A stretch of 64,000 nucleotides of DNA from a virus, in IMG/VR virus record IMGVR_UViG_3300029788_000157, one strand, 5' to 3'. Position numbers and translations under genes: made by a program. Positions 11,830 through 56,152 of the stretch are shown here, piece after piece; positions within the stretch are counted from its first letter, which is position 1, and each line of letters starts with the position of its first letter. The notes under the pieces are model-generated. The model searched no databases, was not told the DNA's origin, and saw nothing but the letters and a program-made list of their open reading frames with translations.

Positions 11830-12978
11830 TTACTCTGTTAATAATTGAATCTGCTTCTGCATTTCACGTATAACCTTATCAGTTATATCTGTTGTAATAT
11901 TGTCTGGTAGAGTAATTCTTAACGACTTTACTGCTTCTTCATCAGACAATCCTATAGCTTTCAATACATGAGATGGTACTGAGGAATGTGAATTACAAGC
12001 TGAACCAACGGATACATATATATCACACAAATCCAACAAGTATATCATTGCTTCCCCCATTACATTTTGATTAAAAGTAATATTGATATTATTGGGAAGT
12101 CTGTCAGTATATTGACCATTAAGCTTGCAACCAATTTTATCTAACAATTCACCAATCATATAGTCTCTTTGTTTTATTGTTGTAAGATATTTTTTCTGTT
12201 TCATATCTACAGAACATAATTCAACTGCTTTAGCAAATCCCATTATATAAGGAAGGTTCTCTGTTCCACCTCTTAATCCATTCATTTGACTACCGTAAAT
12301 CAACGGACTGATTTTTACATCTTCTTTTTTATATAAGATACCAATTCCTTTTGGTGTACCAATCTTATGTCCACTGGCACTCAACATATCAATTTTAGAT
12401 GCCTTCACATCAATTGGAATATGACCAAAAGCTTGTACTGCATCAGTATGAAATATTGCTCCATATTTATGTACAGTTAAAGCAATATCGTGAATATGTT
12501 GAATTGTTCCAATTTCATTATTTGCATATTGAATAGACACTAAAATATCTTCTCCACTTTTCTGTGAAATCACATATTTTAAAGTATCTTCTAAAGCTCT
12601 TAAATCAATACAACCGTTTGTATCAACATCTATAAAGTGAACATCAACTCCAATACCATCCACACATGACAATATAGATTTATGTTCGATTACAGAAGTT
12701 ATAACTGAAGGTATTCTACCCTTTCTCAAACGATTTTGTACAAAGCCCTGTATCGCCCAACAATTACTTTCGCTTCCACAACTGGTAAAATATACTTCAT
12801 ACATTTCTGAATTAAGGAAGTGTGCTACTGTTTCTTTTGCAGATTTTAATGCATTAGCAGCTTCTTGAGCTGGACTATATAAAGATGATGGATTATACCA
12901 CATATCCATATAAGAATAAATTGTATCTAAAACCTCTTTCTTTGGTTTAGTTGTTGCTGCTTCATCCAGATATATCAC
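11830..12978 (-). CDS. iscS: cysteine desulfurase (class V aminotransferase, IscS/NifS-like)
   Basis: 382 aa; PLP-lysine motif SASGHK; overall IscS-like layout. Confidence 0.8.
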   Translation of the reverse strand: MIYLDEAATTKPKKEVLDTIYSYMDMWYNPSSLYSPAQEAANALKSAKETVAHFLNSEMYEVYFTSCGSESNCWAIQGFVQNRLRKGRIPSVITSVIEHKSILSCVDGIGVDVHFIDVDTNGCIDLRALEDTLKYVISQKSGEDILVSIQYANNEIGTIQHIHDIALTVHKYGAIFHTDAVQAFGHIPIDVKASKIDMLSASGHKIGTPKGIGILYKKEDVKISPLIYGSQMNGLRGGTENLPYIMGFAKAVELCSVDMKQKKYLTTIKQRDYMIGELLDKIGCKLNGQYTDRLPNNINITFNQNVMGEAMIYLLDLCDIYVSVGSACNSHSSVPSHVLKAIGLSDEEAVKSLRITLPDNITTDITDKVIREMQKQIQLLTE

Positions 12979-15999: not shown

Positions 16000-16920
16000 C
16001 TATTCAATCTTTACACCAATAAACTCAAGCACTTCTTTTAGCCCTAATCCACCTTCTGACATAGGTTTCATACAATATTGCCATAATTTTGGATGGGTTA
16101 TTTTAAGATTTTGAAATCTATTTGGTTCTTTTTCAAGGTGACATCCATACATACAAAAGACACATCCTGTTCTACTGCATTTTGTTGTTTGCCATTTTCC
16201 TTTATTGTCTTGTACAATCTCTCCATATACAGGAGCATAAGGTAAATTGTATTTTTTGATATACTCAAGAATATCTTGCTCTGTCCAAAATGATAATGGT
16301 TGAGAAGTTGGTCGTTTTGTATCAAAAGCATTACACCCATGTACTTTCCATGCAGTTTTTCTTGCCTGACTCTCACAAGCCATAGTTCCGATTATTGGAT
16401 GCTTGCCTGTTTCTTTTTCATATTTCTTTGCTGGCTTCTTTTTCATAATATTGCAACATTTATTACTAATAAGAAATGGAGCATTTAATAAAAATTTCCA
16501 TTTTTCACAATTATAAATACTTTTATTTCCATTTTTATCCAGCAATTCTCCATTTAATCTTTTTATCCGATATGTATATTTTCCTGTTGTTTCATGCCTT
16601 CTTGCTTCCTCAATAACTTGAGAGATTTCTTTACTTACAATCGGATAACCATATGTTTGAATTACTTTTTTGAAATTCATTTCAGGTCTTACCCATGTAA
16701 CATTTTCAACCGATTTTACAAACTCTCTTAATTCTGGATATTCAAGTCCTGTATCAACAAATACTGCTGGTGTATTTGGATAAAGCCTTCTAACCAAATG
16801 TAATAAAACTGTACTATCTTTTCCACCCGAAAAAGAAACATAAATTTGATTGTAAAAAGGAGTAAAGTTAATGGGTAAACAACCTAAAAGTAAGTTCACA
16901 AATGATGATTTAAAAACCAT
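16000..16920 (-). CDS. PAPS/APS reductase-family PP-loop ATP pyrophosphatase with C-terminal Cys cluster
   Basis: SFSGGKDS PP-loop; LHLV...P.PAVFVDTG..YPE matches the CysH-like core; C-terminal CSRTGCVFCMYGC. Confidence 0.65.
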   Translation of the reverse strand: MVFKSSFVNLLLGCLPINFTPFYNQIYVSFSGGKDSTVLLHLVRRLYPNTPAVFVDTGLEYPELREFVKSVENVTWVRPEMNFKKVIQTYGYPIVSKEISQVIEEARRHETTGKYTYRIKRLNGELLDKNGNKSIYNCEKWKFLLNAPFLISNKCCNIMKKKPAKKYEKETGKHPIIGTMACESQARKTAWKVHGCNAFDTKRPTSQPLSFWTEQDILEYIKKYNLPYAPVYGEIVQDNKGKWQTTKCSRTGCVFCMYGCHLEKEPNRFQNLKITHPKLWQYCMKPMSEGGLGLKEVLEFIGVKIE

Positions 16921-20943: not shown

Positions 20944-21747
20944 TTACATAGATTTAAGGTTTTTTAGAATCCATGCTATAACATCTACCGTCCAACCATT
21001 TCCACACAATTCCACTCTTTTTGAAGCAGATTTTACACATTCAGTAAAGCCATCTGGTAGTGTCTGCAATCTTTCAGCTTCAATAGGGTGTATTTTTCTA
21101 AATGAATATTCACCAAGATAAATATTATTTTTGTCATTACCAGAAGAAGGCAGCGTATTCATCTTGATAGTATTATATCTGGCTCTATTTTGTTGTGAAT
21201 AATTTCCTTTTCCGCTTGTATCCCAACTAACAATAGTGTTATCCCTATTAAATCTAATTGTATCTTTGTATTTCTCAAAGCTTTTAATATCATGTTTGCA
21301 TGAATACTCAATATCTTTAATAACTTTATCAGAATGTGGATACTCTTTTGAAAATGGTATATTAGTCCAATACAACCTTTTTCGCATTTGAGCAGAAAAC
21401 TCCATTGAATTTATTTCAACAGGTTCAACCTGTAATCTTTTGGAAATTTCATTTTGAATATCTTTAGATATTGAAGAATTGTTTTCATATAAAAAATACT
21501 CGCAATGGCTTTCATTCAATGCCCTTACAAACTGCATAAACAACTTGAATCCCATGCCATCACAAGTAACCTCTCTATCTGCTCCTCCTCTTGCAATACT
21601 CCAGTATGTACATGGACTTCCACCAATCAGCAAATCAAATCCCTGATATTGCGTGAAATCTCCTTCAAATACATCTCCTAAATATTCATCAGATGGATAA
21701 TTATATTTCGCTACAGCATTGGCAGCTTCTTCTATTTCATACGACAC
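20944..21747 (-). CDS. dcm: DNA (cytosine-5)-methyltransferase (annotated from GTG; conserved motif I lies upstream, see findings)
   Basis: GGSPCTYWS is motif IV (PC box) and YFLYEN the ENV-like motif. The frame continues upstream to ~21876 and encodes VLSLFNGISCGRVALERAGI (motif I), but no in-frame ATG/GTG/TTG occurs there. Confidence 0.6.
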   Translation of the reverse strand: MSYEIEEAANAVAKYNYPSDEYLGDVFEGDFTQYQGFDLLIGGSPCTYWSIARGGADREVTCDGMGFKLFMQFVRALNESHCEYFLYENNSSISKDIQNEISKRLQVEPVEINSMEFSAQMRKRLYWTNIPFSKEYPHSDKVIKDIEYSCKHDIKSFEKYKDTIRFNRDNTIVSWDTSGKGNYSQQNRARYNTIKMNTLPSSGNDKNNIYLGEYSFRKIHPIEAERLQTLPDGFTECVKSASKRVELCGNGWTVDVIAWILKNLKSM

Positions 21748-22861: not shown

Positions 22862-23620
22862 TTAAATTGCAACAGGTAAATCATTCGGTGTATAAACTGG
22901 CATTGGTTTTAGCTTGAAAATATTCTTCTTATGCATAGAGTCAATCTTATGTTTGATATTTTCATCTTCACATTCACCTGTTCTGATATATCTGTTAAGT
23001 ATTGCATATGAAAATCCCAAATTATCTTCATCTGTAAGTCCACACAAGCCATCAATCGGAACTTTTCTTGTCAACTCTTTAGGTAATCCAAGATACTCTC
23101 CAATAGCAATTACTTCATCTGTTGTAAGCAGAGATAATGGACTAAAATCACCAGCTCCATCACCGTAACGTGTAGCGTATCCAACCCAATCTTCACTAAG
23201 GTTACAAGTATTTGCCACTCTGCCATTTAAAGTCTGTGCAATAGCATATAATGTAACCATTCTAATTCTTGCTGGAAGATTAGTGCTTGTCTGCATACTC
23301 CAATGGTCACACAATTGAGGTTTGATTTCATGTTTCAATGATTTAATTGCCCCATGAATGTCCACCGTATAGTTTTCAATACCAAGATGTTCAACAAGTT
23401 TGTATGCCATATCAATATCTGACTGTTCACCATTTGGCATAAGAACACCAATCACTCTATCTTTTCCCAGAGCTGCTACACATAATGCAGCAACTACGCT
23501 TGAATCTTTACCACCTGAAATACCCACAACAGCATTACAACCATTTCCATTAAGTGAAAACCAGTCCTGAATCCATGCGATAATTTCTTTTGTTGTCTTT
23601 TCTACATTAAATTTATACAT
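22862..23620 (-). CDS. nadE: NH3-dependent NAD+ synthetase
   Basis: GISGGKDSSVVAALCV PP-loop; ~250 aa. Confidence 0.8.
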   Translation of the reverse strand: MYKFNVEKTTKEIIAWIQDWFSLNGNGCNAVVGISGGKDSSVVAALCVAALGKDRVIGVLMPNGEQSDIDMAYKLVEHLGIENYTVDIHGAIKSLKHEIKPQLCDHWSMQTSTNLPARIRMVTLYAIAQTLNGRVANTCNLSEDWVGYATRYGDGAGDFSPLSLLTTDEVIAIGEYLGLPKELTRKVPIDGLCGLTDEDNLGFSYAILNRYIRTGECEDENIKHKIDSMHKKNIFKLKPMPVYTPNDLPVAI

Positions 23621-23680
23621 TCTGTACTTTCCTTTCTATTCAATTTGAGGTGGACTTTCATCCACCTCACTAACAGTTGC

Positions 23681-24208
23681 TTAACCTAAATCATATCTCC
23701 AAATTTCTACATCTACAGAAGATTTACCAAACACATCCTGAATAATTTTATACACATCATTCCAATTTGCACCACCTCTATAGCTTCCAATTCGATATGG
23801 CATAGCAACTGTCGCTCCAATCTTTTCAGCTTTCTCACGAATATCCAAGAAAGCCATTTTCATTGCAGTTAAATCAGTCTGCTGCTCATCCATACCAAAA
23901 TTCTTCTGACCAAAAAGATTGACAATATACTGATACTTAGAATCATATGCTTCAACATTTTCATTCTTCATAGTATCAACCATTACCATAGCCCATGTAT
24001 CAACTGGAACATACTGAACTGTTCCAAGCATTTCAATTTTATTCTTATTACAATGCTTCACATATTTAACATATGCCTTTTCAACATGAGGGTATCTGTC
24101 GGCTACCTGTGCTGCTACACCGCTTCCCATGACACCTAAACAATTTGTCTGGTGTACGATAAAATTTGCATCTGAATCAAAAAGATTTCCATTGATGTTT
24201 TTAATCAT
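23681..24208 (-). CDS. macro domain (ADP-ribose binding/processing) protein
   Basis: Start MIKNINGNLFDSDANFIVHQTNCLGVMGSGVAAQ matches the macro-domain N-terminus; start placed at the internal Met to remove overlap with nadV. Confidence 0.5.
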   Translation of the reverse strand: MIKNINGNLFDSDANFIVHQTNCLGVMGSGVAAQVADRYPHVEKAYVKYVKHCNKNKIEMLGTVQYVPVDTWAMVMVDTMKNENVEAYDSKYQYIVNLFGQKNFGMDEQQTDLTAMKMAFLDIREKAEKIGATVAMPYRIGSYRGGANWNDVYKIIQDVFGKSSVDVEIWRYDLG

Positions 24209-24221
24209 TTTTATCCCTTTC

Positions 24222-25976
24222 TTAGAATCCTTTGCTTTCTGCATGGATGCTATTTCTGATTTCATTTAATGTCTGGTTACGAACAACCTTACCATTAAGG
24301 AATACAGTCTCAAGCATATTAATATCAGACTCTTTCACATCATCTGTTACAACCTGACCCTTTTGGATTCCATCAATATATTTGATTTCTCCATCTTTGT
24401 TACGATATACTCTGACCATACCCTTCTGAGATTTCTTAACACCATCACCTGTTTTCGGGTCTTTATAAACCAAAATAGGTTTACCATTGATTTCAGCATA
24501 TGTAGCTTTATAAGCCCAGCCCTGTGTATCTCTTGTGTTATACTGGAAACTGTAAGAACCAGCACCAAATACTACATTTTCAACTGCATAGCCAAGGTTA
24601 GTCATATGATTACAAATGCTTTCACATCTTTCAAGTGTAATAGCATCTCCGTACACCATTCCAATATGAGGGTCTAATACTTTATACCCCTTAGAGTTTA
24701 TAGTTCCACCGAAAATCTCCCAAAGAATATCCAGTGTTCCTCTCTCTTCAATAGTGGCATCACGATATGTGAATGTGTCGTTTTCACCATCATTAGACCA
24801 TGTAGCAATATATTTCTTATTTCCAATCTCAAGGTAAATTGGAACAAGCTGTCCAGACGTATCTGTTTCATTGCAATAAAGTGACTGCATCATTGGACTT
24901 CTGGTATAGTAAGATTCAAATGCTTCTTTACTTTCATGGGCTTTCCACATTGGGGCAATACCACAAATAATCTCTTCTGGGTCACCGCTGTCAGGTCTAA
25001 TATTGATTCTGCCTGTATGATTAAGAATTACATCCTTATTTTTTCTAACAATATTGTCAACAAAATTCCAGTAATCATAACTGTCTGCCACAAAGCTGAA
25101 AGGTTTATTTGGATAAAGCTCTTTACACATTCTTACAAAAAATGTTTCTTCATCTCCATCTACTGCATAATTGCTTGTAGTACAAGAATGTTCAACAGAT
25201 GCAGACCAGCTTCCAACATCCTCATTTTCAACATCAGCTCCATAGTAATCACAAAGATACTGAATTGAAGGGATTGTAGATGTTTTATCGAAGCTTGTTA
25301 AAAATGCAGCTCCGCTTGTAATAGCAGCATCAAGACTAGCCATACCTCTAAAAGAAAAATCGCCACAACCAACTCTCTTCCAATTCGGATTGTCAGATGT
25401 TAAAACAATATATTTTTCAATAATCTTTCTGTAAATATAAGCTCTTGTTGCTGTTGTTGTAGGTAACCATAAATTACAAGAAAATAATGTCTCAAGATAA
25501 TTTGTTACCCATGCAAAATCAGGATGTGTATTTTCGACTGTACAACAAGGTACTCTATATGGTACTTTTGTACCTTCTGGCAAAGCCTTAATCTCAATCG
25601 GGAGATAGCCAAGTTTATGAAGTGCTTCAATATGTTCTGTATGAGCATTTTCATCAAATGTATTATGGATATACAATTTATACTCATTAAGCACTTCGTC
25701 TAACGGTCTATCAAAGAAATATTCATTAAACTGTTTTACCAAATATTCCTTAATAAATCCCTGTAATCCAAACCAGATTACAAATTTGCTCTGAGGAAAG
25801 AATTTATTACTACGTGGTGTCCAAGTGGAATACATCATTGTCATTCCATCTGGGTACATAGCCCGATGTGCAATTTTATAAAAATCGCATAATAACATCA
25901 TATTCTTCATTTTACTTATCCTCCTTACAATGGCATCCACAACCGCAATCACACACGTTCTCAGCATAATCAACAT
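24222..25976 (-). CDS. nadV: nicotinamide phosphoribosyltransferase-family protein (NadV/NAMPT or Namat-like)
   Basis: LCDFYKIAH and GYLPIEIKALPEGTKVP...VENTHPDFAWVTNYLETL align with NAMPT signature segments. Likely start is the ATG at 25910, 1 nt after the prs stop. Confidence 0.7.
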   Translation of the reverse strand: MLIMLRTCVIAVVDAIVRRISKMKNMMLLCDFYKIAHRAMYPDGMTMMYSTWTPRSNKFFPQSKFVIWFGLQGFIKEYLVKQFNEYFFDRPLDEVLNEYKLYIHNTFDENAHTEHIEALHKLGYLPIEIKALPEGTKVPYRVPCCTVENTHPDFAWVTNYLETLFSCNLWLPTTTATRAYIYRKIIEKYIVLTSDNPNWKRVGCGDFSFRGMASLDAAITSGAAFLTSFDKTSTIPSIQYLCDYYGADVENEDVGSWSASVEHSCTTSNYAVDGDEETFFVRMCKELYPNKPFSFVADSYDYWNFVDNIVRKNKDVILNHTGRINIRPDSGDPEEIICGIAPMWKAHESKEAFESYYTRSPMMQSLYCNETDTSGQLVPIYLEIGNKKYIATWSNDGENDTFTYRDATIEERGTLDILWEIFGGTINSKGYKVLDPHIGMVYGDAITLERCESICNHMTNLGYAVENVVFGAGSYSFQYNTRDTQGWAYKATYAEINGKPILVYKDPKTGDGVKKSQKGMVRVYRNKDGEIKYIDGIQKGQVVTDDVKESDINMLETVFLNGKVVRNQTLNEIRNSIHAESKGF

Positions 25977-26847
25977 TCATAGCAAACACAGTTACATTTT
26001 CATCACTCTTAAAAGGATAAATGCTATCTGTTGTGAACACATGGTCAATCAGCTTTCTGTGCTGAGTTGTTCCAAAAATACTTTTCTTTTCATAGTCCAC
26101 TGTAAGAAGATTCATTTTATCGTCACCAAACTGACCATCATAAATACTCTTTTCACAATGAGAAACAAACAGATAAATGTTTCTTGCTCCCATCTCTTTC
26201 AATTTCTTTGCTGCATAATAGAAAGTTCCACCCTTACTACAAATATCATCACGAATAAGAATATCTCTTCCTTTAATATCTTCAGGTTTAATCCCCATAA
26301 CATCTAATCCAAGAATCCGACCTGTTTCCCATTCTCTCTTCTTAACACCAAATGCATACGGAATCTTAATCCCTTTGGAATATCTCTTCATAGCCCCCTC
26401 ATCAGGGAAAAACATAATCGGTGTAATACCATCGTGAATCAACATATCAAGCACGTTGCTCACAAAAATATTAGTATTGATTACATTGCAATTCTTGATA
26501 GTTGCTGCTACAACACTTGAATGTGGGTCAACTACAAATACTCTGTCAAAATTCAGAGAATTAATCATTTCTGCAAAATACTTCATAGCAAAAATATCAT
26601 TTGGCTCTTCGATTCTGTCCATTCTTGCGTTAGGTACATATGGAAGGAAAAGAGATACATTCATTCCATGTGCCTGATAGAATTTTGTTAAAAATGAAAC
26701 TGCTACAAACTCAGCATCATCCTCATAATTCCAAGTAATAACAACTGTTTCTCCCTGTAAGCTAACATCACCTTTTACATTTGCTGTTCCATCAGGAAAT
26801 CTCTTTACTTCAACTTCTTTTCCATTTACTCTAATCATAATCTTCAC
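25912..26847 (-). CDS. prs: ribose-phosphate pyrophosphokinase-family protein (Prs or ADPR-pyrophosphokinase Adps-like)
   Basis: Prs-like segments FLPYVPNARMDR, DRVFVVDPHS and a PRPP-binding loop; unusual Cys-rich C-terminus CDCGCGCHC. Confidence 0.7.
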   Translation of the reverse strand: MKIMIRVNGKEVEVKRFPDGTANVKGDVSLQGETVVITWNYEDDAEFVAVSFLTKFYQAHGMNVSLFLPYVPNARMDRIEEPNDIFAMKYFAEMINSLNFDRVFVVDPHSSVVAATIKNCNVINTNIFVSNVLDMLIHDGITPIMFFPDEGAMKRYSKGIKIPYAFGVKKREWETGRILGLDVMGIKPEDIKGRDILIRDDICSKGGTFYYAAKKLKEMGARNIYLFVSHCEKSIYDGQFGDDKMNLLTVDYEKKSIFGTTQHRKLIDHVFTTDSIYPFKSDENVTVFAMNVDYAENVCDCGCGCHCKEDK

Positions 26848-27525: not shown

Positions 27526-27576
27526 AGTTTTAACTCCTTTACATTCATATTATCGTTGATTATGATTAACCAACAG

Positions 27577-27660
27577 TGCTGGTGATGGGATTCGAACCCA
27601 CACGTTGTTTCCAACAATAGATTTTGAGTCTACCTTGTCTGCCAGTTCCAACACACCAGC
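27577..27660 (-). tRNA. tRNA-Leu (anticodon CAA), long variable arm
   Basis: Hand-folded: acceptor GCTGGTG/CACCAGC, anticodon loop CTCAAAA, T-loop TTCGAAT. Confidence 0.6.
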
Positions 27661-27664
27661 TTAG

Positions 27665-27737
27665 TGTGCCATATGGGATTTGAACCCATGACCCTTTGAT
27701 TAAAAGTCAAATGCTCTACCAACTGAGCTAATGGCAC
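27665..27737 (-). tRNA. tRNA-Lys (anticodon TTT)
   Basis: Hand-folded: acceptor GTGCCAT/ATGGCAC, D-arm GCTCAGTTGGTAGAGC, anticodon loop CTTTTAA. Confidence 0.6.
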
Positions 27738-28027
27738 ATATCCATAATGACCTTTCATAACATTATGGCGATTTGAGCGATTTCCATTTCTGTTTCATAA
27801 GAATTTTCAGATATTCTCTTATCTTACTTTTTTACTTGAATTATATATCATTTCAAATTCTAAGCTATCTTATAACGGTACTGTGTCTGGGGCTACTCCA
27901 GAGCTGCTAATTTAATAGCTGTCTAATTATCAGTGACACTCCTTTAGTTTTACGTTTCATTCGGGCTTTTGCTCCAATTCTTAATAATGCACACCATATA
28001 GGCGAAACGACAGGTTTTGATATTTAA

Positions 28028-28099
28028 CTGGGGTAATCGGATTCGAACCGATGTATGCAGCAGTCAAAGTGCTGTGCCTTACCGCTTGGCGATACCCCA
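28028..28099 (-). tRNA. tRNA-Gln (anticodon TTG)
   Basis: Hand-folded: acceptor TGGGGTA/TACCCCA, anticodon loop CTTTGAC. Confidence 0.6.
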
Positions 28100-28396
28100 A
28101 TGGGTAGATACAGTTTAACCTATAATTAGTAGCTAATCTAATTATGTTCTCCTACTGTCTAAAGGATGCACATTTTCATTTTAACCCACGCATTGTCTGC
28201 ATTTACAACACTTGAACACTGACGCAGTTCCTTACGCTATCTTCAATATAGCTGTTTATGTTTCTCCAGTGGCGAACTGGCAATGGTTAGCCAACCCATA
28301 TATAATGAAAATAGTCTAAGCGTTAGATAGATTGCTCTATCCGCTGGAATCGTACCAGCCCATCAACTATTGTTGAATCGAACCTCGCTTATTTCG

Positions 28397-28547: not shown

Positions 28548-29849
28548 TTATTTTACAAAATTAACTGATTTCGCTATGTTCTTTGCTGCATTAAAATCCG
28601 CATTTTCTTCATGACCACATTTAAGACATCTAAAATAAGATTGACCCTTTTCATTTTTGGGTCTATTCTTTTCATCCACATATCCACAACAACTACAGGT
28701 CTGAGAAGTATAATGTGGGTCTATTTTTCTAACCTCAATGCCATACTTATTTGCTTTGTATGTAATAAAAGACTGTAATTGATAATACGACCATCCTTTT
28801 AAAAATTTATTTACATTTTTACCTTTTGTAATTCCAGACAAATCTTCTATGTTAATATATTTAGCTTTGTTTTTTAAAGCAAAATCAATTACTTGTTTAC
28901 TAATATAATGATTATATGATTGAACCCAATTTCTTTCATAATCAGTAAACTTATCCATTGTTTTTAATTTTCTTTTTCTGCCATGACCACCTTTAGTCAT
29001 TTTAAGATTTGTCTGTAATCTACTCTTTTGATGTTGAATTTTTGTTTTTACTCGCATAAAATCATTTACACTACCAATATATTTTCGTGAATAATCATTT
29101 ATATTTAATCCACAAACCGCTGGTATTGCAATACCAACATCCACTCCAACTACCACATTTTCATCTAATTCCCTCTTTTCTTTTGGAATATCCATAGAAA
29201 GATTTAAAATAATTTTTCTTCCATCAATTTCTATAGAACTACTACAAACCTTATAATATTCTTCGAAAATCATTTGTATTTCGTGTCTAAGTGAAGCAGA
29301 TTTTTTCACATTTCCCAAAATTAATTTAAACGTAATATTATTAGCAAATTTAATAAACACTTCCAAATCTTTGTTATCTAAATGTTCCAAAAATTCTGCA
29401 TGATTTTTATAATTATGATATAAACCAGAATCACGATGCGGATTGTTGCTTCTTAAACGAACATAATCAACATGAATCAAAAGCGGATTATCACTTCTAT
29501 ATGTAGGTAAAGAGACTTTTCCATACATTAACCCATTTTTACAAGATTGTTTAAAATCCTGTTTTACTTTCATAGATAAACTTGAAGCAACTGGCAAACC
29601 TTTTGGAAATACAATATCTTGTGAATACGCAGAACCTTTTTTACTATTTGAAATTCTGCCATATAACTGATTCAATTCTTTTCTATCTTCTTTACTAGCT
29701 TTATTTAATTCTGCTAAATATAACGCAGACATATATTCATTCATAGCTTTATTTTGAGAAATCATACCTTCTCTTATATAATTAAAAACTCTATTTACTT
29801 CATCATTATTACCAACTATTAATAATTGAATTTTTCTTGTTAAAATCAT
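28548..29849 (-). CDS. tnpB: TnpB (IS605 OrfB) RNA-guided endonuclease-like protein
   Basis: RuvC-I VGVDVGIAIPAV; C-terminal HYTSQTCSCCG...FRCLKCGHEENADFNAAKNIA zinc finger plus RuvC-III. Confidence 0.85.
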   Translation of the reverse strand: MILTRKIQLLIVGNNDEVNRVFNYIREGMISQNKAMNEYMSALYLAELNKASKEDRKELNQLYGRISNSKKGSAYSQDIVFPKGLPVASSLSMKVKQDFKQSCKNGLMYGKVSLPTYRSDNPLLIHVDYVRLRSNNPHRDSGLYHNYKNHAEFLEHLDNKDLEVFIKFANNITFKLILGNVKKSASLRHEIQMIFEEYYKVCSSSIEIDGRKIILNLSMDIPKEKRELDENVVVGVDVGIAIPAVCGLNINDYSRKYIGSVNDFMRVKTKIQHQKSRLQTNLKMTKGGHGRKRKLKTMDKFTDYERNWVQSYNHYISKQVIDFALKNKAKYINIEDLSGITKGKNVNKFLKGWSYYQLQSFITYKANKYGIEVRKIDPHYTSQTCSCCGYVDEKNRPKNEKGQSYFRCLKCGHEENADFNAAKNIAKSVNFVK

Positions 29850-30237: not shown

Positions 30238-30873
30238 TTAAAGGGTGTTAATAGATACGTTGAAGCATAAAATATTAGTTTCTGCCACTTTTCTACACCA
30301 ATCATAGAACTGTTCATAGTCAAATTCACCTGTAGAATACTTTGTAACCCCTTTATATGGTGGGTCACAATAGATTAAAGCACCAGATAATGTATTCATA
30401 TCAATATCCAGATAATTTTTACTGGTCAATTTAACATCTTGAATAAGCGGAACTTGTTTCATAATATTCCTTATTGCTTCATTTGGAATATCTCTAGGGG
30501 TTACACCATCTGCTTTAAATCCTCTGGCATAACCACCAAAGTATTTTGAACCAAATGTACTACAGAATCCAACCAATCCAACATAATAATCAGGATAATT
30601 CTCTTTGTTTAATCTGACAGAATTATATTCATCTTCTGATATTGTTGATGGTGGTATCCAGCCTTCCTGAAGTTTTTTCAATAAAGCAATCAGTTCTTTA
30701 TGAATGTCATTACCCACACGAACCTTGCAATGAATTTTATCCATCATGTTCAATCCACCGCAGAATGGTTCGTAGTAGATACTGACATTATTATCATCAA
30801 TTAGTGATTGTAATATTGGTGCAATTTGTTTTGATACCTTATTTTTGCTTCCAACGTACTTAATAACAATCAC
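30238..30873 (-). CDS. dam: DNA N6-adenine methyltransferase (Dam/D12 class)
   Basis: N-terminal IKYVGSKNK (motif I-like) and LIYCDPPY (DPPY motif IV). Confidence 0.7.
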   Translation of the reverse strand: MIVIKYVGSKNKVSKQIAPILQSLIDDNNVSIYYEPFCGGLNMMDKIHCKVRVGNDIHKELIALLKKLQEGWIPPSTISEDEYNSVRLNKENYPDYYVGLVGFCSTFGSKYFGGYARGFKADGVTPRDIPNEAIRNIMKQVPLIQDVKLTSKNYLDIDMNTLSGALIYCDPPYKGVTKYSTGEFDYEQFYDWCRKVAETNILCFNVSINTL

Positions 30874-31195: not shown

Positions 31196-32803
31196 TTAAA
31201 ACATTTTATCTTCATCAATGTCTGTATCAACATTGGTGTCGGTGCTTTTATCTGTAGAGATACCTACATTCACACTTGGTACAGATGGTGTACTTAATTT
31301 TCCACCAAGAAAACCACCCAGTAATGCAGTAATATCAATACCTGTAGACTCTTTGATTCCATCTGTAACCTGACTCATAGTTGTCATGATGTTACCAGCT
31401 AACTGTGAAGAATCTCCACCGAACATTTTGATAGAATCAACATTTGTATAACCCTTACCAACAGCTTCGGCAATCTTCGGTAACTGTTCAAAATAAACCT
31501 TGATAGTATCAAGTTCCATCTGCTGTCTAGCTGCCTCACCATATTCTTTCATGGCTTCTGCCTTTTTCTGAATACCAGCAGCTTCTGCTTCTGCTTTAGC
31601 TCTTGTGGCTTCCGCTTCTGCCTGTCCTTTTGCTGCAATAGCTTCTGCTTCTGCTTTACCAGCAGCTTTTACTGCTTCTGCTTCCTGTTCCTTAGAGAAT
31701 CTTTCTGCTTCTGCCTTTGCTTTGCGTGACTCGGCTTCTTTCTCTGCTTCAAACTTGTCTGCTTCTGCTCTTTTCTGTCTTTCAAAAAGCTCTGCTTCTG
31801 CTTCTTTCTGTCTCTCATACTGTTCTGCATCGGCTTTCTGTTGTGCTGCATATTTATCTGCTTCTGCTTTCTTTTTAATAGATGCTTCCAGAGTCTTTTC
31901 CTGAATAGCAACCTCACGTTCCTTCAACTCAAGCTCTTTTTCCTGTTTTGCAAGATTGGCATTAGCAGTTGTAATTTCTACAGTCTTTCTCTGTTCCTCT
32001 TCCTGAATAGTGTAAGCTGCATCTGCTTCTGCCTTTTTAATATCAGACTCTTTCTTTAATTCAGCTTTCTTAATATCCAGTTCATTCTGTTTAATAGCAA
32101 TTTCGGATTCAGACTGTACTCTTGCATCATTCGCTTCCTTAGAAGCTTTTGCCTTTGCGATTTCTACCTCTTTATCAGCATTTGCTTTTGCAATAGCAGC
32201 ATCCTTTTTAATCTGAGAAATGTTATCAATTCCTAAATCATTGATAACGTGATTTTCGTCAGAGAAACGTTGTACATTAAACGATACCAATTCTAACCCC
32301 ATCTTTTTAAGGTCTGGAATAACATTTTCAGACACTTTCTCAACAAAAGTTTTTCTATCGCCAATCAGCTCACGAAGCTTCATTGTACAGATAATCTCTC
32401 GAATATTTCCTTCAAGAACTTCTGTAACAATATCTCCAATTTCCTCTGTAGATTTATTAAGGAAGTTCTGTGCTGCAATCTCAACCATCTCAGATGTAGA
32501 ACCAACCTTAACATTGACAGCAGAATCAACATAAATGTTGATACAATCCGCAGTAGGTACTGCATCTCCTGTTTTAATATCCAGCGGAATAAGCTTGAGA
32601 GAAAGCTTATCCATTCTCTCAAAGAAAGGAACTTTAATACCAGCTTTTCCGATAAGTACCTTTGGCTTTTTTCTAAGTCCTGAAATAATCAATGCTGTAT
32701 CAGGAGATGCTTTAACATATCCAGATGCCAGTACACCTACTCCACCAACACCAACAACAAAAGGTAACGCAACTGTAATTCCATTCATAACTTCATTTAA
32801 CAT
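31196..32803 (-). CDS. SPFH/band-7 (flotillin-like) membrane protein with long coiled coil
   Basis: N-terminal TM helix, SPFH core, then ~250 aa A/E/K-rich coiled coil. Confidence 0.6.
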   Translation of the reverse strand: MLNEVMNGITVALPFVVGVGGVGVLASGYVKASPDTALIISGLRKKPKVLIGKAGIKVPFFERMDKLSLKLIPLDIKTGDAVPTADCINIYVDSAVNVKVGSTSEMVEIAAQNFLNKSTEEIGDIVTEVLEGNIREIICTMKLRELIGDRKTFVEKVSENVIPDLKKMGLELVSFNVQRFSDENHVINDLGIDNISQIKKDAAIAKANADKEVEIAKAKASKEANDARVQSESEIAIKQNELDIKKAELKKESDIKKAEADAAYTIQEEEQRKTVEITTANANLAKQEKELELKEREVAIQEKTLEASIKKKAEADKYAAQQKADAEQYERQKEAEAELFERQKRAEADKFEAEKEAESRKAKAEAERFSKEQEAEAVKAAGKAEAEAIAAKGQAEAEATRAKAEAEAAGIQKKAEAMKEYGEAARQQMELDTIKVYFEQLPKIAEAVGKGYTNVDSIKMFGGDSSQLAGNIMTTMSQVTDGIKESTGIDITALLGGFLGGKLSTPSVPSVNVGISTDKSTDTNVDTDIDEDKMF

Positions 32804-33464: not shown

Positions 33465-33701
33465 CTATCCAATCTTTCTCAAAGATTCTTCTCTATATTG
33501 ATTAATCCTTCCACTATCCAATTTTACTTGCACGTACTTTCTATTGTATTGTGGTGGATAATCAATATATCGAATTACTTCTCCAGTGCCTTTTGTAGTT
33601 CCACAACTACTTTGTATTTCAACTCTATTACCTTTACAGAATCGCATTAATACTGTACAGCTTCCTGTCTGGTGATAAAGAAATGGATTCCAGCAGCACA
33701 T
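33465..33701 (-). CDS. hypothetical protein
   Basis: 78-aa ORF. Confidence 0.35.
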
Positions 33702-34867
33702 TCATCCCATCTGTCTGTCTCAAAATCCTCTACTTCAACCGTTGTTCCTACACGATAAATGAAATCACTATCGTAATTACTCGGAATTGAAGTTAATCCA
33801 TCATCCTCACCATCTAAAGTTGTAATAGAAAGAACTTCTGCTTTAGAACAACGACACTTACGACTTGTGGCACTGGAACGTAAAGCATCTTCCGTTATTC
33901 TAAGTTTTACAATATGACCATTTGCTTTCTTATAACCAATGAATGAACCCTCTTCAGGGCATACAAGAGCAAAGAACCCTGTACACTCATCATATCTAAC
34001 ATTCAGGAGGTTAGCACTTCTGAGGTCAGCACCACTGAGGTTAGCACTTCTGAGGTTAGCACCACTGAGGTCAGCACCACTGAGGTTAGCACTTCTGAGG
34101 TCAGCACCACTGAGGTTAGCACTTCTGAGGTTAGCACCACTGAGGTTAGCACTTCTGAGGTCAGCACTTCTGAGGTTAGCACCACTGAGGTTAGCACTTC
34201 TGAGGTCAGCACCACTGAGGTTAGCACTTCTGAGGTCAGCACCACTGAGGTTAGCACTTCTGAGGTCAGCACTTCTGAGGTCAGCACCACTGAGGTTAGC
34301 ACTTCTGAGGTCAGCACCACTGAGGTTAGCACTTCTGAGGTTAGCACCACTGAGGTTAGCACTTCTGAGGTCAGCACTTCTGAGGTTAGCACCACTGAGG
34401 TTAGCACTTCTGAGGTCAGCACCACTGAGGTTAGCACTTCTGAGGTCAGCACTTCTGAGGTTAGCACCACTGAGGTTAGCACTTCTGAGGTCAGCACTTC
34501 TGAGGTCAGCACCACTGAGGTTAGCACTTCTGAGGTTAGCACTTCTGAGGTCAGCACCACTGAGGTTAGCACTTCTGAGGTTAGCACCATAAAAATCATA
34601 TTCATTTAATTTATTCTGATTGCCTTTGGCAATCAGTTCCAGAACTTCTTCCCTGTTAAATGGTTTAATGTGACCGATTTTCTCAAAATACTGTGCTTCT
34701 ACTACATAAGATGCTCCAAGACAAAACGGATTACTCTTATGAGACATTACACGTACTTCGATTTCATCTCCATGAACAGAAAGGATTCTACCCCTTGTCA
34801 TATCCATGTCTGTGATACAATACTTATCTGATATTCCTTTTACAATATCATCTACAACAAAATTCAT
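33647..34867 (-). CDS. pentapeptide-repeat protein (about 38 consecutive A(D/N)LRS / ANLSG pentapeptides) with unique N- and C-terminal domains
   Basis: Uninterrupted pentapeptide repeats encoded by a 15-bp periodic DNA repeat at 34003..34590; flanking non-repetitive domains. Confidence 0.7.
34003..34590. repeat. 15-bp periodic tandem DNA repeat (ctgaggt[ct]agcac[ct][at], about 39 units) encoding the pentapeptide repeats
   Basis: Direct inspection; units alternate between two variants. Confidence 0.9.
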
Positions 34868-34893: not shown

Positions 34894-35166
34894 TTATCCT
34901 GTAAAATTCCATTTAATTGGATATACATTACTTCCGCTGCCTATAAATGTGAAATTATCGCCACAATAAGGACATTTGCCCTGACAAGGTGCATAATGCG
35001 GATTATCCTTTGAATATCGTTCTCTTTCACGATAATCAAATACATGACCTGTTTTGCACTGACACAGAAAACTCATTTTATTTTGCATGGTTTTCTTTTT
35101 CTTTCGGGTGTACTCAGGATGTTCCCTTGCAAATTCTTCCCAAGTCATACGACTTTTCTCTGCCAT
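34894..35166 (-). CDS. small zinc-finger protein
   Basis: CQC...H...CQGKCPYCG. Confidence 0.4.
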   Translation of the reverse strand: MAEKSRMTWEEFAREHPEYTRKKKKTMQNKMSFLCQCKTGHVFDYRERERYSKDNPHYAPCQGKCPYCGDNFTFIGSGSNVYPIKWNFTG

Positions 35167-35636
35167 TATTTTTCCTTTTTCAATGACAGATTCTTAATCA
35201 TTGGCTTATGCTTTAACATTGCTGCATCTGTTGACTGAGTAATATCCACAACAGTTACTACAACCTTTTTTCTGCCCTTCTTTGTATCAGAGACAACCAA
35301 TACATCATCTCCTACTTTTACAGGAATACCTCTAGTGTTCTTCCATGTATATTTCTTATGGCAGTTCCTAAACATCCCAATGATGTAAGTTACTGGTGGT
35401 CTTTCTACCTTATCCTCCTGAGTAATGCAAGGAATTTCTTCCAGACCACATTGATTTGCAACCAGATAACGTACATAATTATCTGTCAGAACTCCATCAG
35501 AATTAACAACAATCGGTTTATCAATGGTATTATGCTTTTCAACATAATTCTTGACTCTTTCAATCTTGTCACTTCTGGGAGTACTTTGAGTGAACTCTTT
35601 CGGAATAATCACTTCCGAAACTTTAATGGTTCTCAT
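35166..35636 (-). CDS. ParB-like nuclease domain protein
   Basis: IVVNSDGVLTDNYVRYLVANQCGLEEIPC matches the ParB N-terminal domain pattern. Confidence 0.5.
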   Translation of the reverse strand: MRTIKVSEVIIPKEFTQSTPRSDKIERVKNYVEKHNTIDKPIVVNSDGVLTDNYVRYLVANQCGLEEIPCITQEDKVERPPVTYIIGMFRNCHKKYTWKNTRGIPVKVGDDVLVVSDTKKGRKKVVVTVVDITQSTDAAMLKHKPMIKNLSLKKEK

Positions 35637-37825: not shown

Positions 37826-39040
37826 TTACGCTTCATGCTCTTCTGAATCTGCCATAATGCTCTCAGCAAAGCTTTCATATCCATCGTTTACATCGTTTTC
37901 AGAATCAACGGTTTCCTCTGATTCTTCTACAGATTCAGAATCAACTTCCTCATTAACTTCCGTATTATCTTCAGCTCCATCCTCATCCATTTTAAAGAAC
38001 TCTGCATAGCTGTCTGCTAATGCCTTATCTCTTGTCTGGATATTCATATTTTTAGATACACCAGAAGTGGCTGCCATATTGTAATCTTCAGATACGCTTG
38101 CACCATCGTCTGTTTTAAAGAAATCAACAATCCAGTCTGCCATAAGGTTTTCATCAATACCAGCTTCTACAGCCTTTTTAAAATAAGGAATAAGTGATAC
38201 CATATGAGTTTCAGTAAACAGTTTCTTAGCAACCTTTTTCTCTTTACGTTCAATCAGATTGTAATGAGTATCAAAGATAAGGTCAAACACTTCAATCAGT
38301 GCCAACTTTTCAGTTTCAGTAATCTCTGTGTTTTCAAGCAATGGATTAAATACTTTACTCTCAAAGCTTACATCCTGAATATCCTGATTCATCATGCACC
38401 AGCACTTCATTACTAATGCTGCCTGATTCTTGTTTTCGATTGCCTTCTCTGTCAACATACCATCTGTAGAACTAAACAGTTTATGAGAACCAATATTTAA
38501 CAGACCTTCAATATCTTTGCAAGATGCAAGTGTTCTTGATTTTGCACTCAGAGGTTTGCCAGCATTTAATCTCTTGAAAAGTTCTTTAGATTCTTCGTTT
38601 GTCAGGTTATCAAAGTAAATAACACTAATACGTGCGTTCTTTACCTTCTCCTGAAGTCCTTCTGGAAGGTCTGAAAATTTCATACCTGAAATATCAACTG
38701 TTTCGTCTGTATCTGTAAGTTCATCATAATATGTTACAGGTGGTAAATCTGTCAATGCAAATTCATCATTGATAAAACTTGCAATAGTAGAAAGTCTCTG
38801 TTTACCATCCATAATGTCATATACATTACTGTTTCTCTTACCAGAACCATCATCAAATCTTCTTGCATATACCGCTGGAATCGGAACACTGATAATTGTA
38901 CTCTCAATCAATCCAGACTTTCTTGCTCTTTCCCATACCAGACCTCTCTGTACAAGATTTGTAAAGACGATTCTCTCATTCTTTACCATAGCTGCTAACT
39001 GTTTTGCTCCCCATGTAATACTTGCGTTTTCAAATGACAT
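37826..39040 (-). CDS. DUF262 (ParB-like/GmrSD N-terminal) domain protein with strongly acidic C-terminal tail
   Basis: IMDGKQRLSTI matches the DGQQR-type motif; last ~55 residues are D/E-rich. Confidence 0.6.
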   Translation of the reverse strand: MSFENASITWGAKQLAAMVKNERIVFTNLVQRGLVWERARKSGLIESTIISVPIPAVYARRFDDGSGKRNSNVYDIMDGKQRLSTIASFINDEFALTDLPPVTYYDELTDTDETVDISGMKFSDLPEGLQEKVKNARISVIYFDNLTNEESKELFKRLNAGKPLSAKSRTLASCKDIEGLLNIGSHKLFSSTDGMLTEKAIENKNQAALVMKCWCMMNQDIQDVSFESKVFNPLLENTEITETEKLALIEVFDLIFDTHYNLIERKEKKVAKKLFTETHMVSLIPYFKKAVEAGIDENLMADWIVDFFKTDDGASVSEDYNMAATSGVSKNMNIQTRDKALADSYAEFFKMDEDGAEDNTEVNEEVDSESVEESEETVDSENDVNDGYESFAESIMADSEEHEA

Positions 39041-52516: not shown

Positions 52517-55366
52517 ATGTTAGATACTCAAATCAATATATATAGTGTGGATACAGGTAACTTTTATAGTAATCACGAAGCCCATCTACACTGGTTAAAT
52601 CACAAATTGCGTTCCGAAAGAAATGCTTTGGTGCAAAAATCAAAAGATATAACCAGTGAACTTTTTAAATACGGAATTGAGCAAAGTGATTTGGATACAA
52701 TGTTAAAATCTGAATATGATTATTCAGGTTGGGGCGAAGATACAGAACGTATTCAATCTCTTGGAAATGAATATGTCAATCTTAAAGAATTGATTGTCAT
52801 GAAAAACAGAAAAATCAAGTATAGCAAAGATACTCTTTTGCAACTTCTGGAAAATAAAGTCAATGCAAATATTGTTTCTGATGGAAAGCATCATATTCGT
52901 GAATTAAAGGAAAATGATGTTTCTGATAAAAAAATAATTTCTGTGTTTGATTCTTCTTTTACAAGAATGATACACGCACAACCTAATGAACTGTCAGAAG
53001 ATTTTATGGTTGTTCAGGTATATTATTTTGATATAATCAAGGATTTAATATACTACGGATTTACATATAAGGGAGAAAAGTATATTTACTTTACTTCTTC
53101 TGCTGGTCAAATTCGAACAAAGAAAACTGTATTCATTAAAGAGTCAACATGGAAAAAATATGAAAAAACAATTATGTGTGGACTAACAATAGATGTCATT
53201 AATTCAAAAGGTGGTAATAATCCTAATAAGCATTTGGCATACACTGCATTAACCAATTCTGCTACAGATGCATGGGAAGAATTTGATATTGACAAAACGA
53301 TTGTTATTGATGATTTTGAGACAAATGTGTTTGGAACATATGACTTAGTAGATGATGCAGACTATTCTATCAAGCGTGTATCAGATTATGTGCCAATTAC
53401 TCATACTGATGGAGCTGGAATGATGTTACCTCATATGGGTAAAAATAGAATGGTTCGTTTACCTTGGGTAAAAGGACTGCTTGGAAAATTTGATTATGTT
53501 CATTTTATAGAGGTTAATGGTTGCTCTCCTATCATCAAGGACATTTATGGAAAAGAACATGATATTATCGCAGAAGGCATTGAAATCATATTTACAAAAT
53601 CACAATTCAAGATGTGGAAGTATTATGATTCATGGGAGCAATACAAAGAGTATTATAAAAAATATCATTGTACTGCTGGATATACTAATCTTGAAGAGGA
53701 TAGAATAAGAAATGCAAAAATCAATTATCAAATGCTTCAGACATTAACCGATATTACTGATGAGGAGATATTGGAAATTGCAAAACCATCTATCAATAAA
53801 TTGCAAAATCTTTGTTCTTCTGTTGAGAACATTAAAGATGCATTTGGTATTACCCCTTATAATTTACATAAAAATTCGTTTCAAAAGTCTGTAGAGCTAT
53901 ATCCTGACCTATTGAATGACGAATATGTAAAAACACAACTGAGGAATACTAAAGATAGCATGATAAAACAGTATAAGTCTGGAAAATTACAGATTTATGG
54001 AAAGTATACTTTTTTACTTCCTGATTTTTATGCAGCTTGTCAATATTGGTTTCAGGGAATAAAAGACCCTGAAGGATTATTGGCTGACCAAGAAGTATTC
54101 TGTTGGTTATTTAGAAAATCAGATAAGTTGGATTGTTTACGTTCTCCTCATCTTTACAAAGAACACGCAATAAGAAAAAATATTGCATATTGTAAAAATG
54201 AACGTCAAAAACTTATAAGAGAATGGTTTGATACTGATGCCATTTATACCAGTTGCCATGACTTAATTAGTAAAATTCTTCAGTTTGATGTAGATGGAGA
54301 TAAGTCTCTTGTGGTGTCTGACAGGAAATTTATTGAAGTCGCAGAAAGAAATATGAAAGGGATTGTTCCTTTGTATTACAATATGCGAAAAGCATCCCCC
54401 ACTCTTCTAACATCTGAGAATATTTATAATGGATTGGTGGCTGCTTTTACAGGTGGAAATATTGGATTGTATAGTAATAATATTTCTAAAATTTGGAACA
54501 GTGAGGTATTTATTTCAGGAACACCAGAGGAAAAACAAGAAGCTATTGACCTTGTTAAACTACTTTGTATGGAAAATAACTTCGTCATTGATTATGCGAA
54601 AACTTTATATAAACCGCAACGTCCAAAAGATGTTCATGAAAAAATCATTGCTCACACCAAAGAGAATGTTCCTCATTTTTTCAAATATGCAAAGGATAAG
54701 GATGAAGTACAGGTTTCAAATATAAATGCAAGTTTTGTAAATAAGCTAAATAGCATTATCCCAAATCCGAGAATTAATTGTAGGTCATTAAAATTAGGAA
54801 CTATAGATTATAAGTTGCTTATGCACAATCCCGATATTGAATGTCGTGTTGATTTTACTGATAGAGGAAAATTAATAAAGGAAAAGACTGACCCCTTGAT
54901 TGTAAAATATTGTGAGTTGAGTAGCAAACATCATTTTCAAATCAATCTCAACTATAAAGAAAATCTTTCTCCTGATTTAATGAAACATTCTCAAATAGTA
55001 CAAGATTTATTATATAAAAATATTTCAAATGAAATAAAAACAGCTTTATCCGAATTTGGATATAGTGAATCAGAAATAGCTGACATACTTGTAAAATATT
55101 TATACGGAATTAAGAAAAGTAAACACAAAGTTGCATTATGGTTATGTTATGGAAATATCATTTATGAAAATATAAAAGAAAATGGATGTAAAAATAATCA
55201 TAAAAGTATTCAGTGTGTAGATTGCGGAGAATGGTTTGATGTGTTGACAAAAAATAATAATACTTGCAGATGTCCAGATTGTTATGAAGAATATAGAAAA
55301 AATCGTAAATTAGAGACTCAAAGAGCAAGAAGAAACAAAATGAAGTCGGGTCAAAAAATTTTATAA
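52517..55366 (+). CDS. large DxDGD-motif protein; candidate YonO-like single-subunit RNA polymerase (alternative: primase-polymerase)
   Basis: 949 aa; QFDVDGDK resembles the two-barrel RNAP catalytic DxDGD motif; C-terminal CVDCG...CRCPDC zinc ribbon; YopX also present elsewhere in the window. Confidence 0.4.
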   Translation: MLDTQINIYSVDTGNFYSNHEAHLHWLNHKLRSERNALVQKSKDITSELFKYGIEQSDLDTMLKSEYDYSGWGEDTERIQSLGNEYVNLKELIVMKNRKIKYSKDTLLQLLENKVNANIVSDGKHHIRELKENDVSDKKIISVFDSSFTRMIHAQPNELSEDFMVVQVYYFDIIKDLIYYGFTYKGEKYIYFTSSAGQIRTKKTVFIKESTWKKYEKTIMCGLTIDVINSKGGNNPNKHLAYTALTNSATDAWEEFDIDKTIVIDDFETNVFGTYDLVDDADYSIKRVSDYVPITHTDGAGMMLPHMGKNRMVRLPWVKGLLGKFDYVHFIEVNGCSPIIKDIYGKEHDIIAEGIEIIFTKSQFKMWKYYDSWEQYKEYYKKYHCTAGYTNLEEDRIRNAKINYQMLQTLTDITDEEILEIAKPSINKLQNLCSSVENIKDAFGITPYNLHKNSFQKSVELYPDLLNDEYVKTQLRNTKDSMIKQYKSGKLQIYGKYTFLLPDFYAACQYWFQGIKDPEGLLADQEVFCWLFRKSDKLDCLRSPHLYKEHAIRKNIAYCKNERQKLIREWFDTDAIYTSCHDLISKILQFDVDGDKSLVVSDRKFIEVAERNMKGIVPLYYNMRKASPTLLTSENIYNGLVAAFTGGNIGLYSNNISKIWNSEVFISGTPEEKQEAIDLVKLLCMENNFVIDYAKTLYKPQRPKDVHEKIIAHTKENVPHFFKYAKDKDEVQVSNINASFVNKLNSIIPNPRINCRSLKLGTIDYKLLMHNPDIECRVDFTDRGKLIKEKTDPLIVKYCELSSKHHFQINLNYKENLSPDLMKHSQIVQDLLYKNISNEIKTALSEFGYSESEIADILVKYLYGIKKSKHKVALWLCYGNIIYENIKENGCKNNHKSIQCVDCGEWFDVLTKNNNTCRCPDCYEEYRKNRKLETQRARRNKMKSGQKIL

Positions 55367-55953: not shown

Positions 55954-56026
55954 GGCTCTATGGTATAAAGGCAATTATATCCGACTGTCTCTCGGAAGAT
56001 TTGGGTTCGATTCCCAATAGAGTCGC
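55954..56026 (+). tRNA. tRNA-Asp (GTC)
   Basis: Hand-folded: acceptor GGCTCTA/TAGAGTC, anticodon loop CTGTCTC. Confidence 0.55.
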
Positions 56027-56147: not shown

Positions 56148-56152
56148 CTTAT

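Follow-up and report, generated by a model that had tools for sequence, protein, structure and literature searches.

Why a phage should carry a very long, uninterrupted run of pentapeptide repeats is the question raised by a viral DNA of 64,000 nucleotides (IMG/VR record IMGVR_UViG_3300029788_000157; this whole stretch is called the window below). A reading made without database searches (the sequence-only reading) had taken one of its genes for a pentapeptide-repeat protein (PRP) that may mimic B-DNA and act as an Ocr-like decoy for restriction enzymes, topoisomerases or other DNA-binding defences. The open reading frame (ORF) is present where that reading placed it, at 33647-34867, and runs on the minus strand (406 amino acids, aa). 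It encodes a member of the phage PRP-DUF5758 family, and the minisatellite that codes for its repeats changes, within the phage lineage, far faster than the rest of the genome, the number and order of the units being close to random. The gene and its parts are the following.

33647..34867, minus strand: complete PRP-DUF5758 gene, 406 aa with an ATG start; orphan N-terminal domain, helical cap, 39-unit PRP beta-helix and DUF5758
34655..34867, minus strand: N-terminal domain, aa 1-71, lineage-specific, with no match in Pfam and a predicted local distance difference test score (pLDDT) below 50
34586..34654, minus strand: alpha-helical N-cap and lead-in, aa 72-94; helix at 72-86 in the model, matching the family-wide 'EL..IL..H..WL' cap
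34001..34585 by unit count, minus strand: array of 39 x 15 bp, a hypervariable minisatellite, aa 95-289
33650..34000, minus strand: C-terminal region, aa 290-406, in which DUF5758 (aa 299-403) corresponds to window positions 33659-33973

Amino acids 95-284 are 38 perfect pentapeptide units (15 ANLSG, 14 ADLRS, 8 ANLRS and a single ADLSG) followed by a degenerate thirty-ninth, ANLLN, in agreement with the approximately 38 repeats counted previously. A 15-bp tandem repeat of about 39 copies had also been described and was found again: the array is 39 x 15 bp long and composed of four 15-nt unit types, GCT[A/G]ACCTCAG[AA/TG]GT, with zero synonymous variants among them (Tandem Repeats Finder: 34007-34589, scores 833-882). 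Variation between units is strictly binary, A/G at nt 4 and AA/TG at nt 12-13, and the other adenines never vary. All three varying positions change outward-facing residues (D/N at i-1, RS/SG at i+1 and i+2). The N-terminal flank, previously estimated as a unique region of about 90 aa, measures 94 aa, and the C-terminal one, estimated at about 110 aa with a Cys pair, extends 117 aa past the last unit (122 including the unit) and contains C303, C338, C340 and C390. Two ORFs that cross the array in other frames, 33939-34592 (plus strand) and 34003-34605 (minus strand), were rejected as repeat artefacts.

Next, the window gene was compared with its 120 best relatives, nearly all of which come from short-read metagenome assemblies (MEGAHIT k141). 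The N-terminal flank was exactly 94 aa in 117 of them and the C-terminal flank exactly 117 aa in 119, while the segment in between comprised 3-35 units, giving protein lengths from 226 to 386 aa in 5-aa steps; the 406 aa of the window protein exceed all of these. All 120 relatives are in frame, as the 15-nt unit is a multiple of three and a change in repeat number keeps the reading frame, and the locus does not behave as a phase-variable contingency locus. At the DNA level, six relatives were 97.1-99.9% identical to the window over ±3 kb with perfect synteny, and their arrays, built from the same four units, held 3, 21, 22, 23 and 33 units and, where one contig stops in the array, at least 11. 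The 648 nt coding for the unique domains differed by 0-4 nt per pair. The array is thus an in-frame minisatellite (an intragenic variable-number tandem repeat) with 3 to 39 units between flanks that are 97-99.9% identical, and the length-variation hotspot suspected from the single sequence is real: both the number and the order of units differ across near-identical relatives, the reshuffling of unit types being something that a single sequence could not reveal.

In the 108 arrays analysed (3 to 39 units), 105 were distinct. Unit number modulo 4 was flat (30, 27, 28 and 23 arrays), with no detectable preference for whole coils. Correlations in unit order were weak at all lags (|r| <=0.13), and none of the order constraints sought, namely lag-4 stacking, salt-bridge pairing and charge balancing, was detectable. 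Among 162 protein pairs with zero flank differences, the normalised edit distance between arrays was 0.63, compared to 0.71 for shuffled arrays. In a few pairs with identical flanking protein the arrays differ by clean insertions or deletions of 1-4 units, as slippage or unequal exchange would leave them. Such an array could distinguish strains of SPβ-like gut phages with very high sensitivity.

The same behaviour was observed outside the window lineage. Arrays in three members of other lineages (L009, L010 and L011) and in Rhizobium phage RHph_TM3_3_14B are nucleotide-perfect at nt 1-3 and 5-9, with codons different from those of the window, and vary only at nt 4, where D and N are near 50:50, and within nt 10-13, in some cases up to nt 14-15. 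Synonymous-site identity between units was >=0.9 in approximately 30 of the 79 IMG/VR loci. Lengths also range widely in other lineages, one having arrays of 7, 17 and 31 units and a second arrays of 16 to 51; the array in L053 (IMGVR_UViG_3300045988_108247, nt 1643-2833, 393 aa) has 51 homogenised units, which exceeds the 39 of the window, compared to 16-28 in its lineage-mates. The family thus repeatedly combines rapid homogenisation with surface dimorphisms that are retained: in several lineages the minisatellite turns over much faster than point substitutions accumulate, and polymorphism is confined to surface codons. Synonymous sites have lost all variation, whereas the same kinds of non-synonymous site remain variable in every lineage, which implies that something, be it selection acting on the protein or on the stability of the repeat, keeps the units heterogeneous.

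The repeat and the C-terminal domain each scored above the cut-off of a known family. Pfam PF00805 (Pentapeptide) scored 280.3 bits against a cut-off of 20.2 (E = 1.8e-85), and PF19062 (DUF5758) scored 127.5 bits against 26.9 (E = 2.4e-37), with aa 299-403 covering model positions 1-105 of 105. The sequence-only reading was right in seeing a unique C-terminal domain with a Cys pair and missed that this domain is DUF5758. Residues C303, P304, G307, K313, R330, C338, R339, R386 and G393 are invariant across the family alignment, and the near-invariant ones include E389, C390 and H395. The N-terminal domain showed nothing significant against PDB sequences (best E 0.12), and no paralogous copy of the N- or C-terminal domain was found elsewhere in the window. 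A weak, recurrent Pfam link to DUF7666 was present in 25 of 50 family members and adds no function.

The structure was modelled with AlphaFold using a 125-sequence alignment (mean pLDDT 81.3; approximately 88-98 in the solenoid, approximately 98 in the C-terminal domain and below 50 in the first 70 residues), which superseded a poor single-sequence run (mean pLDDT 52). The right-handed quadrilateral beta-helix proposed earlier is what the model and Foldseek returned: the array is predicted to be a regular, loop-free helix of approximately 9.75 coils and 47 Å. The predicted C-terminal domain is all-beta, its sole helix being a terminal one of 6 residues. The top Foldseek matches were designed consensus solenoids (43-48% identity). 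No solved sequence is closer than these artificial proteins (PDB 4yc5, 4yfo and related entries), which share with the window array near-perfect, loop-free repeats but are short, capped differently and without biological function. In BFVD, matches of approximately 110 residues (2-3 Å root-mean-square deviation) were obtained to giant-virus MORN-repeat, RING and small uncharacterised proteins; the aligned region was not reported. They probably align to the C-terminal domain, a hint, to be taken as a lead, that this fold may also be joined to other repeat scaffolds.

An exhaustive HMMER search returned 4075 clusters at 50% identity, all of them matching the cap, PRP and DUF5758 part at 45-65% identity, while homologues of the first 86 residues were confined to the near-identical lineage. 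IMG/VR holds at least 579 copies of the family, and the PRP array lies N-terminal of DUF5758 in all 79 IMG/VR loci examined and in the 150 representatives; apparent standalone DUF5758 ORFs in IMG/VR were discarded as artefacts of the first-ATG start rule and of contig ends. PRP-DUF5758 is a very large family that occurs in every phage and phage-like context examined. Among cultured phages, DUF5758 was present in 152 cluster E mycobacteriophages and in Synechococcus, Thiohalocapsa, Ralstonia, Rhizobium and human-faecal phages, and the PRPs of Staphylococcus, Listeria and Rheinheimera phages lack it.

A megablast search for near-identical DNA gave no match in the cultured phage collection, and tblastn aligned aa 87-406 to cultured-phage members at 49-58% identity (55-57% for the C-terminal domain alone). 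Mycobacterium phage Cjw1 gp59, its counterparts in other cluster E phages and EVB67_031 of Rhizobium phage RHph_TM3_3_14B have the same helical cap, PRP beta-helix and C-terminal DUF5758; they are likewise phage-borne, lie in early operons and are annotated merely as 'pentapeptide repeat protein'. The window protein differs from these cultured-phage members by an extra orphan N-terminal domain of approximately 70 aa and by its 39 units, compared to about 10-19. The Cjw1 units are diverged, and in the cluster E phages listed the matching stretch hardly varies in length (741-750 nt), whereas the array of the window lineage is hypervariable; the Rhizobium phage array is nucleotide-homogenised, like that of the window gene. 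What is new in the window protein with respect to this known, uncharacterised phage family is the extra N-terminal domain and the extreme, hypervariable array.

On balance, the explanation that we consider probable is that the gene encodes a variable-length, minisatellite-encoded rod with a conserved C-terminal module, an early or accessory protein that works inside the cell and is not a DNA decoy. The array would change by slippage during replication and by homologous recombination between units, unequal or short-patch, with no dedicated diversifier involved, and the rod would be a rigid scaffold or spacer able to accommodate differences in length and surface. From its conservation we infer that DUF5758 is the functional module; its invariant Cys, Arg and Lys and near-invariant His may form a metal or active site. 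A C-terminal domain conserved over thousands of clusters suggests a tolerant solenoid carrying a conserved terminal module, with the extra N-terminal domain of the window lineage presumably at the opposite end of the rod. The most likely mode of action is an early one in which the terminal domains of the protein contact other proteins or ligands, in a role that could be host takeover or counter-defence, and the protein would not act as an electrostatic decoy. An early intracellular role is suggested by two locations: in Cjw1 and Rhizobium phage RHph_TM3_3_14B, genes of like architecture are among the first downstream of the immunity repressor, and in the window the gene belongs to an accessory island with NAD-salvage, methylase, GmrSD-like and TnpB genes. 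Other family members occur within runs of small phage genes, one of them beside replication genes.

Several observations weigh against this explanation. The exact lengths of long arrays, that of the window included, may be wrong, coming as they do from short-read assemblies. Very few substitutions underlie the pooled ratio of non-synonymous to synonymous polymorphism (pN/pS) of the flanks, 0.32. Some long contigs carry arrays of 2-3 units, too short for a single coil, so the rod may be dispensable rather than a required spacer. The promoter scan for the PRP gene gave nothing above chance, and its expression is a prediction. Neither phmmer nor the family profile found anything significant for the C-terminal domain among PDB sequences, and no solved structure was matched to its fold. 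In the literature, no paper mentions DUF5758 or DUF7666, and phage PRPs appear at the level of annotation only.

Known proteins resemble this arrangement in part. Effectors such as Salmonella SopA, E. coli NleL and PipB2 have a rigid PRP beta-helix as a stalk joined to a separate functional C-terminal domain, which in SopA and NleL is a HECT-like E3 ligase; SopA and NleL appeared among the structural and NCBIfam matches. By contrast, the C-terminal domain of the window protein is unrelated (DUF5758, approximately 105 aa, all-beta), shows no sign of ubiquitin-ligase chemistry and belongs to a phage protein, not to a secreted effector. In-frame repeats also code for the Ser-Asp stalks of staphylococcal Clf/Sdr adhesins. 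The repeat tract of E. coli tolA is described as an intragenic in-frame variable-number tandem repeat (PMC3477136). With tolA and Clf/Sdr the window gene shares perfect short in-frame repeats whose copy number differs in close relatives, presumably as a result of slippage or recombination, and with it the length of a structural segment. Unlike them, it is an intracellular phage gene in which the repeat encodes a folded beta-solenoid, not a flexible or helical linker, and four unit variants are reshuffled in order as well as in number. The locus offers a natural system to study how the length and surface of a beta-solenoid affect function.

A second explanation is neutral: the array could be a functionless, self-expanding linker in a two-domain protein, or the whole gene could be dispensable, the length and order of the array simply drifting. 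Perfect 15-bp repeats are intrinsically unstable through slipped-strand mispairing, and the flat length distribution, the absence of whole-coil preference, the random order and charge, and the viability of very short arrays on long contigs are what drift would give. However, the array precedes DUF5758 in every member examined, indicating that the rod is ancient and retained in the architecture; non-synonymous dimorphisms persist against homogenisation in many lineages; and neither the reading frame nor the PRP consensus is ever broken. We regard neutrality as rather unlikely.

A third explanation is that the four-unit alphabet is a surface selected for its diversity, with variants that track a polymorphic host target or escape an immune sensor, comparable to transcription activator-like effectors (TALE), the variable lymphocyte receptors (VLRs) of lampreys and antigenic variation. 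Polymorphic positions are all non-synonymous and surface-exposed, synonymous sites are homogenised in at least five independent lineages, the D/N dimorphism is near 50:50 in each lineage, and almost every sample has a different array. Against this, unit order looks random (|r| <=0.13), and lag 4, the spacing of units stacked on one face, gives no signal; the spread in charge is that of a random draw; arrays of 2-3 units cannot form a binding surface; the terminal domains are invariant and hence still recognisable by a sensor; and heterogeneity could instead serve folding, solubility or DNA-repeat stability. Selection for diversity is improbable on this evidence. Quite improbable, too, is the view that the minisatellite is an evolved diversification device, in which selection keeps the four-letter surface set (D/N x RS/SG) and slippage or recombination makes a near-unlimited repertoire of rods. 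If true, it would allow a phage population to track a polymorphic host target or evade an immune sensor, and would be a phage intracellular analogue of TALE, lamprey VLRs and antigenic variation, reinvented in many PRP-DUF5758 lineages; selected variation would also be a new mode of phage protein diversification without reverse transcriptase. Two dedicated diversifiers were considered and rejected. No reverse transcriptase was found among the ORFs scanned (the neighbours and most, not all, ORFs of >=250 aa), and variation that is binary, not adenine-to-any, rules out a diversity-generating retroelement. A site-specific recombinase was discarded because the repeats are direct only.

We also analysed the proposal from which this work started, that the beta-helix passes for B-DNA and thereby sequesters a DNA-binding host protein. 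In that view the target would be gyrase or topoisomerase, as for Qnr, MfpA and AlbG, or a restriction or bacteriophage exclusion (BREX) enzyme, as for Ocr. The Ocr-like acidic mimic was not supported by the charge of the array, which is basic (net charge +7, isoelectric point 11.6), with faces of +3, +1, 0 and +3 and 15 Asp compared to 22 Arg; it lacks the dense, conserved set of surface carboxylates with which Ocr and ArdA-type mimics copy the phosphate backbone. The sequence-only reading had itself named a beta-helix that is not DNA-like and acidic as the result that would speak against it, and this is the predicted structure. Over the 108 relatives, array charge averaged +0.6 (range -8 to +8) with a standard deviation of 2.76, compared to 2.45 ± 0.2 for random draws, which indicates that charge is unconstrained. 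A DNA-shaped ligand docking with a fixed geometry would hardly be expected to vary from 3 to 39 units without favouring whole coils.

Nor does the protein resemble gyrase-type PRPs. Compared to the gyrase-interacting Qnr, MfpA, AlbG, McbG and EfsQnr, the window protein is without loops or a C-terminal dimerisation helix, and it stayed below the cut-offs for Qnr (NF033086, 78.6 compared to 240 bits) and MfpA (NF000349, 90 compared to 360 bits); all Qnr subfamily models of NCBIfam were far below their own cut-offs. Loops are required for Qnr activity, and the window array has none (39 units uninterrupted, regular strands in the model). More generally, loops occur in some PRPs and affect partner binding, and gyrase-type PRPs (Qnr and MfpA) dimerise via a C-terminal alpha-helix (PMC10886550), in the place of which the window protein has DUF5758. 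Its surface is basic or neutral and unconstrained and its length variable, compared to the DNA-like polar or acidic surface of gyrase-type PRPs (PMC10886550). The conserved part of the family is the C-terminal domain outside the repeats, and, tentatively, DUF5758-like folds may occur in giant viruses of eukaryotes, which argues against a bacteria-specific target. In favour of mimicry, peptides directed at gyrase and DNA mimics are both known from phages (PMC10886550; PMC7261183), and the gene is placed among early or accessory genes. Taken together, a DNA mimic is very unlikely, and the tempting annotation was removed as unsupported.

Finally, that short-read assemblers collapsed or mis-threaded one fixed array and so created an apparent variation is scarcely credible for the phenomenon as a whole, and could in part hold for exact lengths. 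The contigs were assembled by MEGAHIT (k141), several contigs and proteins end within the array, and some pairs differ by whole periodic blocks. The window array contains an exact 178-bp repeat (offset 210 bp, 14 units) that exceeds k, and its count of 39 units is for this reason beyond what a short-read assembler resolves. However, 41 of the 120 arrays have <=8 units (<=120 bp), so that a single 141-mer spans them, and yet they differ in number and content. Since any 141-mer of a contig is present in the reads, differences in order over stretches of approximately 9 units are real. Identical arrays were also recovered from independent sources or several contigs (for example P0042, P0065, P0073 and P0097), and the cultured, completely sequenced Rhizobium phage has a similarly homogenised array. 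Among the metagenomic contigs and predicted proteins, L003 ends at the array and P0270-P0273 also stop inside it: the locus systematically breaks short-read assemblies of these phages, and it is a warning that it may also distort them.

The phage origin of the element was confirmed by a terminase match and by phage gene content. The window belongs to an SPβ-like phage: its terminase is approximately 49% identical to those of the Bacillus SPβ group, related contigs measure 125-142 kb, and one relative lies in a metagenome-assembled genome labelled Intestinibacter bartlettii. The PRP gene is part of a co-directional block of accessory genes that includes a Pnkp-RNA ligase fusion, NAD synthase, NAMPT, a PRPP-synthetase-like gene, C5 and Dam methylases, TnpB, the flotillin, the ParB-like and GmrSD_N/NsnA-like genes and tyrosine recombinases, and its neighbours are the following.

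33465..33647, minus strand: downstream 60-aa gene whose ATG overlaps the PRP stop codon (TAATG)
34894-35166, minus strand: Cys-rich, zinc-ribbon-like protein of 90 aa, directly upstream of the PRP gene, with synteny in the lineage
35166-35636, minus strand: protein of 156 aa with weak ParB-like matches, whose stop overlaps the start of the 90-aa gene, with synteny in the lineage
31196-32803, minus strand: flotillin/SPFH protein of 535 aa with a long Glu/Ala/Lys-rich coiled coil, two genes downstream of the PRP gene, with synteny in all relatives

The TAATG overlap suggests that the 60-aa gene is probably translationally coupled to the PRP gene. It was called at the matching position in the relatives L004-L006, with synteny conserved within the lineage, and family searches with it gave zero matches.

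Other genes of the window were noted in passing. A TnpB/Cas12f-like gene (28548-29849, minus strand; TNB domain, E = 1.6e-25) is present in L004 and L006 and absent from that place in L005. The PRP protein matched no defence-system model in PADLOC, and a GmrSD_N (DUF262)-type protein (37826-39040, minus strand) matched NsnA (E = 2.1e-27), a defence-like phage gene; a strong sigma-70-like promoter match lies upstream of it (39146-39118). A nicotinamide adenine dinucleotide (NAD) module on the minus strand (22862-26847) comprises NAD synthase (22862-23620), NAMPT (24222-25976) and a protein resembling phosphoribosyl pyrophosphate synthetase (25912-26847), and resembles phage NAD-reconstitution pathways of counter-defence. 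Putative DNA-modification genes, all on the minus strand, are found at 11830-12978, 16000-16920, 20944-21747 and 30238-30873; the set consists of a class-V aminotransferase/cysteine desulfurase, a DndC-like phosphoadenosine phosphosulfate (PAPS) reductase, a C5-cytosine methylase and a Dam-type N6-adenine methylase.

RNA-related genes were also observed. A 949-aa protein (52517-55366, plus strand) matches weakly a eukaryotic-type RNA-dependent RNA polymerase family (PF05183, E = 2.3e-8), consistent with a YonO-like single-subunit RNA polymerase. The tRNA genes number 18, a tight cluster of 15 (55954-57462, plus strand) and Leu-CAA, Lys-TTT and Gln-TTG beside TnpB (27576-28100, minus strand). 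A 747-aa fusion (7061-9304, minus strand) joins a P-loop kinase, a metallophosphatase and a T4 Rnl1-type RNA ligase, and looks like a one-protein system for tRNA or RNA repair.

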